Shown here one piece after another: positions 30,635 to 31,692 of a DNA stretch of 64,000 nt. The DNA lies in the IMG/VR virus record IMGVR_UViG_3300025646_005470; one strand, 5' to 3'. Both the position numbers and the translations under genes were made by a program. Source of the stretch: a virus. Positions within the stretch are counted from its first letter, which is position 1, and the number at the start of each line of letters is the position of its first letter. The notes beneath the pieces were generated by a model, which saw only the letters and a program-made list of their open reading frames with translations, did not search any database and was not told where the DNA came from.

Positions 30635-31477
30635 ATGAGCGAAAGCAAACTAGCAAAATACTACAGAGCACCAAAACTGTATGTTCGTATACCAAGTCAG
30701 GGTGCATTTAATCCTGATATAGAGCAGTCTATGAGTGAAGAACTTGCTGTTATGGCAATGACTGGGCGTGACGAAACTATGATCAAAAACCCAGATGCGT
30801 TGTTAAACGGAGAAGCAATTACATCAGTTATCAAAAGTTGTGTTCCAGGAATCAAAGATCCAAAGGATATTCCAATCACAGATGTTGATACTCTTTTAAT
30901 TGCTATTAAAATTGCAACCAACGGTGAAGAACACGAAGTAAGTGCTAAATGTCCAAAATGTAAAACAGAAACTAGAGGTGTAGTAAATTTAAGAAACGTA
31001 CTACCTACTGTAAAATTATTGGAATCAGAATACCCAATCAAATTAGATACCGGTGTAACCGTTTATATTAAACCTTATACCTATGCTATGCAAACCGAAG
31101 CGGCGTTGGCGGCATTTGACGAAACAAAAACATTGCAAAACTTAACTAAAGAAAAAGAAATAAATTCTGAAAGTATGGCAATATATAATAAAAGTTTTAG
31201 AAGAATGGCAGAAATGAGTGTTTCATTACTAGCAAGAAGTATTGTAAAAGTTGTTACTCCGGAAGGCGATGAAGTTTCTGATCCAAATGAAATTTTTGCA
31301 TTTATTCAAAACATTGACTCTACTGCGGCAAAAACAATCGATGACACTTTAGCAAAAATCAATTCAATTGATATAGACAAAAGAATTGAAATGACTTGTG
31401 AAAATGAAAACTGTAAAAATGTTTGGAGCACTGAAGTAGAATATAATGCGGCAGATTTTTTCGGAATTGGCTCTTAA
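30635..31477 (+). CDS. gp26: Baseplate hub assembly protein / tail assembly chaperone (gp26-like)
   Basis: YYRAPKLYVRIPS, EL.VMAMTGRDE..IKNPDALLNG, D.DTLLIAIKIAT.G, CPKC and C.NENC. Confidence 0.8.
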   Translation: MSESKLAKYYRAPKLYVRIPSQGAFNPDIEQSMSEELAVMAMTGRDETMIKNPDALLNGEAITSVIKSCVPGIKDPKDIPITDVDTLLIAIKIATNGEEHEVSAKCPKCKTETRGVVNLRNVLPTVKLLESEYPIKLDTGVTVYIKPYTYAMQTEAALAAFDETKTLQNLTKEKEINSESMAIYNKSFRRMAEMSVSLLARSIVKVVTPEGDEVSDPNEIFAFIQNIDSTAAKTIDDTLAKINSIDIDKRIEMTCENENCKNVWSTEVEYNAADFFGIGS

Positions 31478-31692
31478 AGGCTGAGCCACAAGAAATAAAT
31501 GTCTACTTTGAACAATTAGAAAAAGAAAGAAACTCAATCAAACAACAGATAACCGAAATCTGTTGGTACATGCGTGGTTCCATATCTTGGGAAGAAGCAT
31601 GGAGTTTGAGTGATGTTGACCGTAATGACTTAACTAAATTTATTGGTGAAAACGCCGAACGATTTAAAAAGGCCGGTCAAATAGTTGTTTAG
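31456..31692 (+). CDS. -1 frame extension of gp26 (gp51-like); predicted 352-aa frameshift fusion
   Basis: Frame open 31447-31689: FFRNWLLKAEPQEINVYFEQLEKERNSIKQQITEICWYMRGSISWEEAWSLSDVDRNDLTKFIGENAERFKKAGQIVV*. No start codon before MRG; entered through T TTT TTC at 31456-31462. Confidence 0.7.
   Translation, partial: FFRNWLLKAEPQEINVYFEQLEKERNSIKQQITEICWYMRGSISWEEAWSLSDVDRNDLTKFIGENAERFKKAGQIVV

Follow-up and report, generated by a model that had tools for sequence, protein, structure and literature searches.

The 64-kb stretch of viral DNA analyzed here (the window) contains a gene for a 280-residue relative of the baseplate-hub assembly protein gp26 of phage T4, and close to its 3′ end this gene carries the heptamer T_TTT_TTC, behind which the −1 reading frame stays open. 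Does the gene specify one protein or two and, if two, by what route would the second be made and to which known phage proteins would the pair correspond? The sequence-only reading of the window, made without database searches, had answered that a programmed −1 frameshift yields a “gp26/gp26-51” pair of chaperones, comparable to the G/GT pair of phage lambda and encoded beside the tape-measure gene. The features of the gene itself are as follows.

30635..31477, + strand: gp26-like baseplate-hub assembly gene (PF12322, phrog_150), zero-frame short form of 280 aa.
31456..31462, + strand: putative slippery heptamer T_TTT_TTC in the X_XXY_YYZ register, in-frame in all relatives examined.
31462..31692, + strand: −1 frame extension of 76 codons plus TAG (31690-31692), with homologous −1 ORFs in all relatives.
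30635-31462 joined to 31462-31692, + strand, base 31462 being read twice: predicted long form of 352 aa, with a C-terminal domain from the extension.

The 3′ end of the 280-aa ORF reads GAT TTT TTC GGA ATT GGC TCT TAA, and the heptamer lies at the positions and in the register that had been claimed for it. The −1 frame is shut five codons upstream of the heptamer and is open from 31462 to the TAG, as had also been said, over 76 codons. No ATG, GTG, or TTG occurs in it before the ATG at 31570 (extension codon 36), which agrees with the earlier statement that no such codon precedes the internal Met-Arg-Gly. A slip at the heptamer would join 276 to 76 residues, and so ORF arithmetic reproduces both of the proposed product sizes, 280 aa for the short form and 352 aa for the fusion. 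The heptamer alone carries little weight, because TTTTTTC is frequent in the AT-rich window, where we counted 28 occurrences against 34.5 expected (no excess). What stands above chance is the conservation of the heptamer, the register of the two frames, and the presence of a conserved −1-frame protein in every relative examined.

The assignment of the gene to the gp26 family is clear. The 280-aa protein matched the Pfam family PF12322 (T4_baseplate) with 69.6 bits (cut-off, 24.5; E value, 4e-19) over residues 41 to 276, corresponding to model positions 20 to 218 of 219, and it matched phrog_150 (“baseplate hub”) with an E value of 2.9e-23. An alignment of gp26 homologs (alignment A1) showed that C106, C109, C255, C260, F275, and F276 are invariant. 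The window covers structural and replication genes of a T4-related phage, among them those for portal protein gp20, a major head protein, a prohead protease, subunits of a gp46/gp47-like nuclease, and a late sigma factor. No second PF12322 copy was found within the 64 kb. As a separate observation, C106/C109 and C255/C260 make up two invariant cysteine pairs in an arrangement that resembles a split zinc-binding site, and T4 gp26 carries comparable pairs; the sources that we consulted on the gp26 family yielded no description of a zinc-binding site.

A blastn search of isolated phages with the locus gave no match. The sequence-only reading had suggested aligning the 3′ ends of homologous gp26 genes and searching with the −1 peptide. 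When used in a tblastn search of isolated phages, the −1 peptide gave three matches (Atu_ph07, Phosso, and SCTP-2), each directly behind a gp26 homolog, and the gp26 body gave 96 records, all of them giant phages of the RaK2, 121Q, PA5oct, CBB, or Atu_ph07 type. The relatives span 25 to 40% protein identity, without blastn similarity. Alignment of the gp26 3′ ends showed that a TTTTTTC-type heptamer followed by an open −1 frame is conserved in every relative. In the window and nine isolate genomes, including those of RaK2, 121Q, PA5oct, CBB, Atu_ph07, and SCTP-2, an in-frame slippery heptamer was present in 10/10 cases, with T_TTT_TTC located one to eleven codons ahead of the zero-frame stop and a homologous −1 ORF behind it in each case (70 to 77 aa in these genomes, 60 to 91 residues over the whole comparison). 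The cultured cyanophages S-PM2 and Syn9 have the same arrangement, with −1 ORFs of 60 and 65 aa, respectively.

We extended the comparison to two samples of IMG/VR loci. The first consisted of 80 loci retrieved with a gp26 profile, 79 of which were complete, and all 79 had an in-frame slippery heptamer (74 TTTTTTC, 1 TTTTTTT, and 4 A_AAT_TTT). The second consisted of 80 loci retrieved with an extension motif; 74 of these were split genes, and TTTTTTC was in-frame in all 74, the loci being phylogenetically related, so that the heptamer counts overstate independence. The codon preceding the heptamer always ends in T, and the residue that it encodes varies (N, D, S, H, R, or T). Of the 65 loci compared with a codon usage expectation, all 65 were slippery against 29 expected from each gene's own codon usage given the amino acids, a comparison that ignores kinship among the loci and provides no formal probability. 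At the four A_AAT_TTT loci (L029, L032, L036, and L057), the site lies 3 nt further upstream with the X_XXY_YYZ register kept; the zero frame there encodes NFS, and it takes the shift to restore the invariant FF.

These variants also bear on a different way of making the same 352-aa protein, namely, transcriptional slippage, in which RNA polymerase would add one U on the T6 run and so create an in-frame fusion with no ribosomal shift. The product would be identical, and the conserved T ahead of TTT TTC lengthens the homopolymer as well. Known cases of bacterial transcriptional slippage involve homopolymer runs of about 8 to 9 or more, and selection for such slippage would be expected to lengthen the run. 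The long A or T run that is typical of this process was, however, absent from all of the >150 relatives, where the run is T5 to T7: it has only six T residues (seven in one locus and five in four) and was never extended. Moreover, in the four A_AAT_TTT loci, the X_XXY_YYZ pattern is kept while the T run shortens. Transcriptional slippage is therefore an unlikely source of the long form.

The extension itself behaves as protein-coding sequence. A comparison of ten close relatives gave a dN/dS of 0.13 for the −1 frame, and the other two frames contained 5 to 12 stops; the −1 frame is thus under purifying selection. Conservation of the protein (R-x-R-L-L...P-x-E-I) begins at the first codon past the heptamer. 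An AlphaFold2 model of the extension had a mean pLDDT of 92, with predicted helices at residues 2 to 6, 9 to 36, 43 to 47, and 51 to 70. Searched alone, the extension had no match in Pfam, PHROGs, or PDB sequences, and fold searches with the extension and with a naturally fused protein (see below) found no solved relative.

Could this coding sequence be a small gene in its own right, translated either from a start codon inside the frame or through termination-reinitiation at the stop that overlaps it? Annotators do call small ORFs at the extension, and in 10 of 69 non-redundant loci, an ATG, GTG, or TTG lies no further in than codon 3 of the −1 ORF, with ATGA overlaps in Atu_ph07 and Phosso. 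However, the first canonical start is >15 codons inside the −1 ORF, within the conserved region, in 36/69 loci, the window included, and the −1 ORF of PA5oct has no start codon at all. A separate gene would also leave the universal heptamer and its register without a reason, would not be expected to show conservation that starts exactly at the slip site, and sits poorly with the natural in-frame fusions, which show that the domain is normally joined to a gp26-like body. We consider this explanation very improbable. Chance or artefact (an error in sequencing, or gene decay that happened to leave a frame open) could draw on the frequency of TTTTTTC in the window but deserves next to no credence, given the same architecture in independently sequenced isolates and hundreds of metagenomic contigs, the dN/dS of 0.13, and the confidently predicted fold of the extension.

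The natural fusions were found when the extension profile was run against a set of 1.84 billion representative proteins, which gave 732 matches. Most of these were orphan ORFs of 55 to 100 aa, and these orphan proteins, of which public collections hold hundreds, are the −1 extension miscalled as a gene. About 20 of the best 150 of the 732 matches were proteins of 319 to 351 aa in which the extension is C-terminal and fused in-frame to a PF12322 body. Their junction reads F-R-x-K-L-I, with a single F and no T run. Six fused-type IMG/VR loci were found, and in 5/5 of those scanned (L095, L096, L098, L099, and L100; L097 was left out), a short gp26-like paralog without the extension directly adjoins the fused gene. 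Complete genomes of Atu_ph07, PA5oct, 121Q, RaK2, S-PM2, and Syn9 have one PF12322 gene each, and T4 has two. Every lineage examined thus supplies both a short form and a long form, through either two genes or one gene with a slip site, and it is this regularity, our strongest argument, which argues that both products are made and needed. The short paralogs at the five scanned loci end in a G-S-(S/N)-F-type motif, which resembles the zero-frame tails of the frameshift-type genes (GIGS, ENGS, QSF, and QGF); this resemblance suggests that the short form has a conserved C terminus of its own.

Existing annotation does not reflect this arrangement. None of the ten annotated isolate records examined marks slippage; a mini-ORF is called at the extension except in PA5oct and RaK2, where nothing is annotated. 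In line with the earlier expectation that gene callers would miss or truncate the extension, the records contain either an orphan mini-ORF or nothing at all.

We conclude that the long form is very likely to be made by programmed −1 ribosomal slippage on T_TTT_TTC, and the frameshift put forward by the sequence-only reading is strongly supported by the comparative evidence (conservation of the heptamer, its register, and the conserved −1 protein). By this mechanism, most ribosomes would read through T_TTT_TTC and halt four codons on, yielding the 280-aa short form. A fraction would slip one base back with tRNA-Phe on the UUU and UUC codons; the slipped tRNA-Phe would re-pair on UUU UUU, and 76 further codons would be read in the −1 frame, adding a helical domain to give the 352-aa long form. 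The efficiency of the slip would set the short-to-long ratio. The short form would correspond to T4 gp26 and the long form, as a gp26-like body with a tail, to T4 gp51, and the two may act jointly in the central hub/tape-measure part of baseplate assembly. The comparisons presented here establish the anatomy of the sequence, its conservation, the homologies, and the alternative gene arrangements; the occurrence and efficiency of slippage, and the assembly role and partners of the two forms, are what we infer from them.

Sequence downstream of the heptamer might stimulate the slip, and the window has one candidate element.

31468..31488, + strand: candidate hairpin (UGGCUC, 9-nt loop, GAGCCA) of 6 bp, 5 nt past the heptamer, retained by the close clade and by SCTP-2.

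The window's hairpin was not significant when compared with shuffled sequences (z, −0.62), and it overlaps the conserved LL..AEP codons, which are a confounding factor. In a set of 69 loci, the 50 nt past the heptamer had on average more structure than the remainder of the gene (mean z, −1.56); 31/69 loci were below a z of −1.5, and strong hairpins were present in Atu_ph07, PA5oct, and others.

The proposed correspondence with T4 depends on how gp51 relates to gp26. In T4, gp26 and gp51 are listed as chaperones of hub assembly, and the finished particle does not contain gp51 (Leiman et al. 2010, PMC3004832). The T4 gene 26 product has 208 aa and ends in EFFELL, with the nonslippery codons TTC TTT at the FF. 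T4 gp51 has 249 aa, of which residues 1 to 201 match PF12322 (E value, 4e-52) and about 48 form a tail; from this match, gp51 is a paralog of gp26 with a C-terminal tail. The tail of gp51 homologs is labelled PF28602 in a large protein database. We compared this tail with the extension by aligning family profiles. The extension profile matched the tail of the gp51 family with an E value of 8.6e-4, and a profile of the natural long forms matched the gp51 family with an E value of 9.5e-5, collinear to the C terminus. A tail-only hhalign comparison of the extension with the gp51 tail gave an E value of 8.6e-5 and a score of 26.1; permutation of the gp51-tail columns gave scores of 9.96 ± 2.05 (maximum, 20.8), and 0/200 permutations reached 26.1. 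These are profile-profile scores of moderate probability (59-60%), and the similarity is seen in the family-versus-family comparison only: when hhalign was used to compare the extension profile with T4 gp51 as a single sequence, the match fell on an off-target stretch, and the T4 gp26 and gp51 bodies could not be aligned to a HMMER profile of all long forms (about 6 bits). The idea of a gp26/gp26-51 pair holds in the sense that gp51 is a PF12322 paralog whose tail is similar to the extension. On visual inspection, the extensions of the cyanophages seem to fall between the T4 tail and the extension of the giant phages.

The likeness to T4 lies in the PF12322 family itself, with a short form that ends just past the conserved FF, in a long form whose C-terminal helical tail is similar to the extension, and in the encoding of short and long forms side by side. 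The means differ. In T4, the two forms come from separate paralogs that have diverged, are divergently transcribed, and lack a slippery site, whereas here one gene with a −1 slip would give short and long forms with an identical body, and the extension has 76 aa here against about 48 in T4 gp51. A literal fusion of gene 26 to a downstream gene 51 was considered and rejected, as gene 25 follows gene 26 in T4 and gene 51 is divergent from it; the correspondence would therefore be one of equivalent products and not of two fused T4-like genes. T4 also differs in having an additional internal-start product of gene 26, gp26′ (95 aa; 5803-6090 on the − strand of the T4 locus, L010), and given this annotation, gp26, gp26′, and gp51 may be three related products that serve hub assembly in T4.

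The sequence-only reading had placed the gene beside the tape-measure gene. Its neighbor on the 5′ side is as follows.

28218..30536, − strand: divergent neighbor of 772 aa, probable tail tape measure protein (from feature matches, synteny, and homolog annotation).

The neighbor had no Pfam or PHROG family match and no BLASTP similarity to T4 gp29. Its Atlas feature matches to tape-measure clusters reached 0.94, the annotation of its RaK2 homolog reads tape-measure-like, and those in PA5oct, 121Q, and CBB are virion proteins. In the virion proteome of CBB, the large neighbor, CBB_251, is present, and 249 and 250 are not listed. Homologs of the neighbor lie beside gp26, and divergent from it, in PA5oct, 121Q, and IMG/VR loci, including two-gene loci. 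The 772-aa protein is thus probably a tape measure. The adjacency claimed for the gene stood, with conserved synteny; the neighbor is only a probable tape measure, and it is on the opposite strand. Also in favor of a tape measure, two of its homologs carry C-terminal cell-wall hydrolase domains (Glyco_hydro_19 in L040:1-2391 on the − strand and VanY in L096:5138-7921 on the − strand); no such domain was found in the window's own copy.

How far does the parallel with established frameshifted tail genes extend? Xu, Hendrix, and Duda reportedly described, in 2004, a −1 frameshift conserved in the tail assembly chaperone genes of long-tailed phages, with lambda gpG/gpGT as the example, and Christie et al. 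are said to have shown in 2002 that the E/E+E′ tail-assembly gene of the myophage P2 uses a −1 slip on a T-rich heptamer. As in lambda, a predicted −1 slip signal near the 3′ end of a tail-assembly gene would yield a short protein and a C-terminally extended one, and the gene adjoins a probable tape-measure gene. The sequence features of a G/GT-type frameshift and their conservation are both present, slippage itself being predicted. Unlike in lambda, the gene does not lie upstream of the putative tape measure on the same strand but is transcribed away from it; there is no adjacent tube gene, and the other neighbor is a PDDEXK nuclease. P2 E/E′ differs in both protein family and gene position. 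Neither the gene nor the extension matched the tail assembly chaperone families in Pfam and PHROGs. Foldseek against the PDB and a wide VIA-align search gave nothing above generic helical matches, and a BFVD fold search gave baseplate hub (assembly) proteins only. A further likeness to G/GT is that virions lack gp51, the counterpart in T4 (PMC3004832).

By homology to T4 gp26 and gp51, the two forms should act in hub assembly, a role borrowed from T4 genetics (PMC3004832). The notion that gp26 and gp51 are tape-measure chaperones, as the sequence-only reading had it, is weaker than that of hub assembly. More tentatively still, gp26/gp51 could do for the T4 superfamily what G/GT does for lambda, though with an unrelated fold. 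The tape measure and the hub would be bound by the body that the two forms share, the next component would be brought in by the tail of the long form, and the single frameshifted gene would perhaps represent the older state, the two genes of T4 being a later duplication.

Frameshifting in tail assembly chaperones is regarded as near-universal, the −1 shift being described as a conserved feature of the long-tailed phages, “except T4” (Atkins et al. 2016, PMC5009743). A full-text literature search found no report of frameshifting for gp26/gp51 in RaK2-like phages, jumbo phages, or cyanophages. The conserved recoding signal in gp26-like genes is real and is unreported in the searchable literature. 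Genes of the frameshift type range from cyanophages to giant RaK2-like phages. A different protein family, that of T4 gp26/gp51, appears to work on this principle, with a short and a long product, in many T4-related phages. If the functional parallel with G/GT is true, the textbook exception made for T4 falls, and gp51, long called a “catalytic” hub factor, gains a concrete mechanism. The finding supplies a testable idea of how gp51 acts. Annotation would be corrected in hundreds of genomes, in which the extension is either missed or called an orphan mini-ORF, and the cultured systems PA5oct, 121Q, RaK2, S-PM2, and Syn9 are open to direct tests.

On the 3′ side of the window's gene, a PDDEXK/RusA-like nuclease gene (31689-32186, − strand) converges on the extension. 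Its TAA (31689-31691, minus strand) overlaps the TAG of the extension (31690-31692), and therefore there is no space for an intervening terminator between the two genes.
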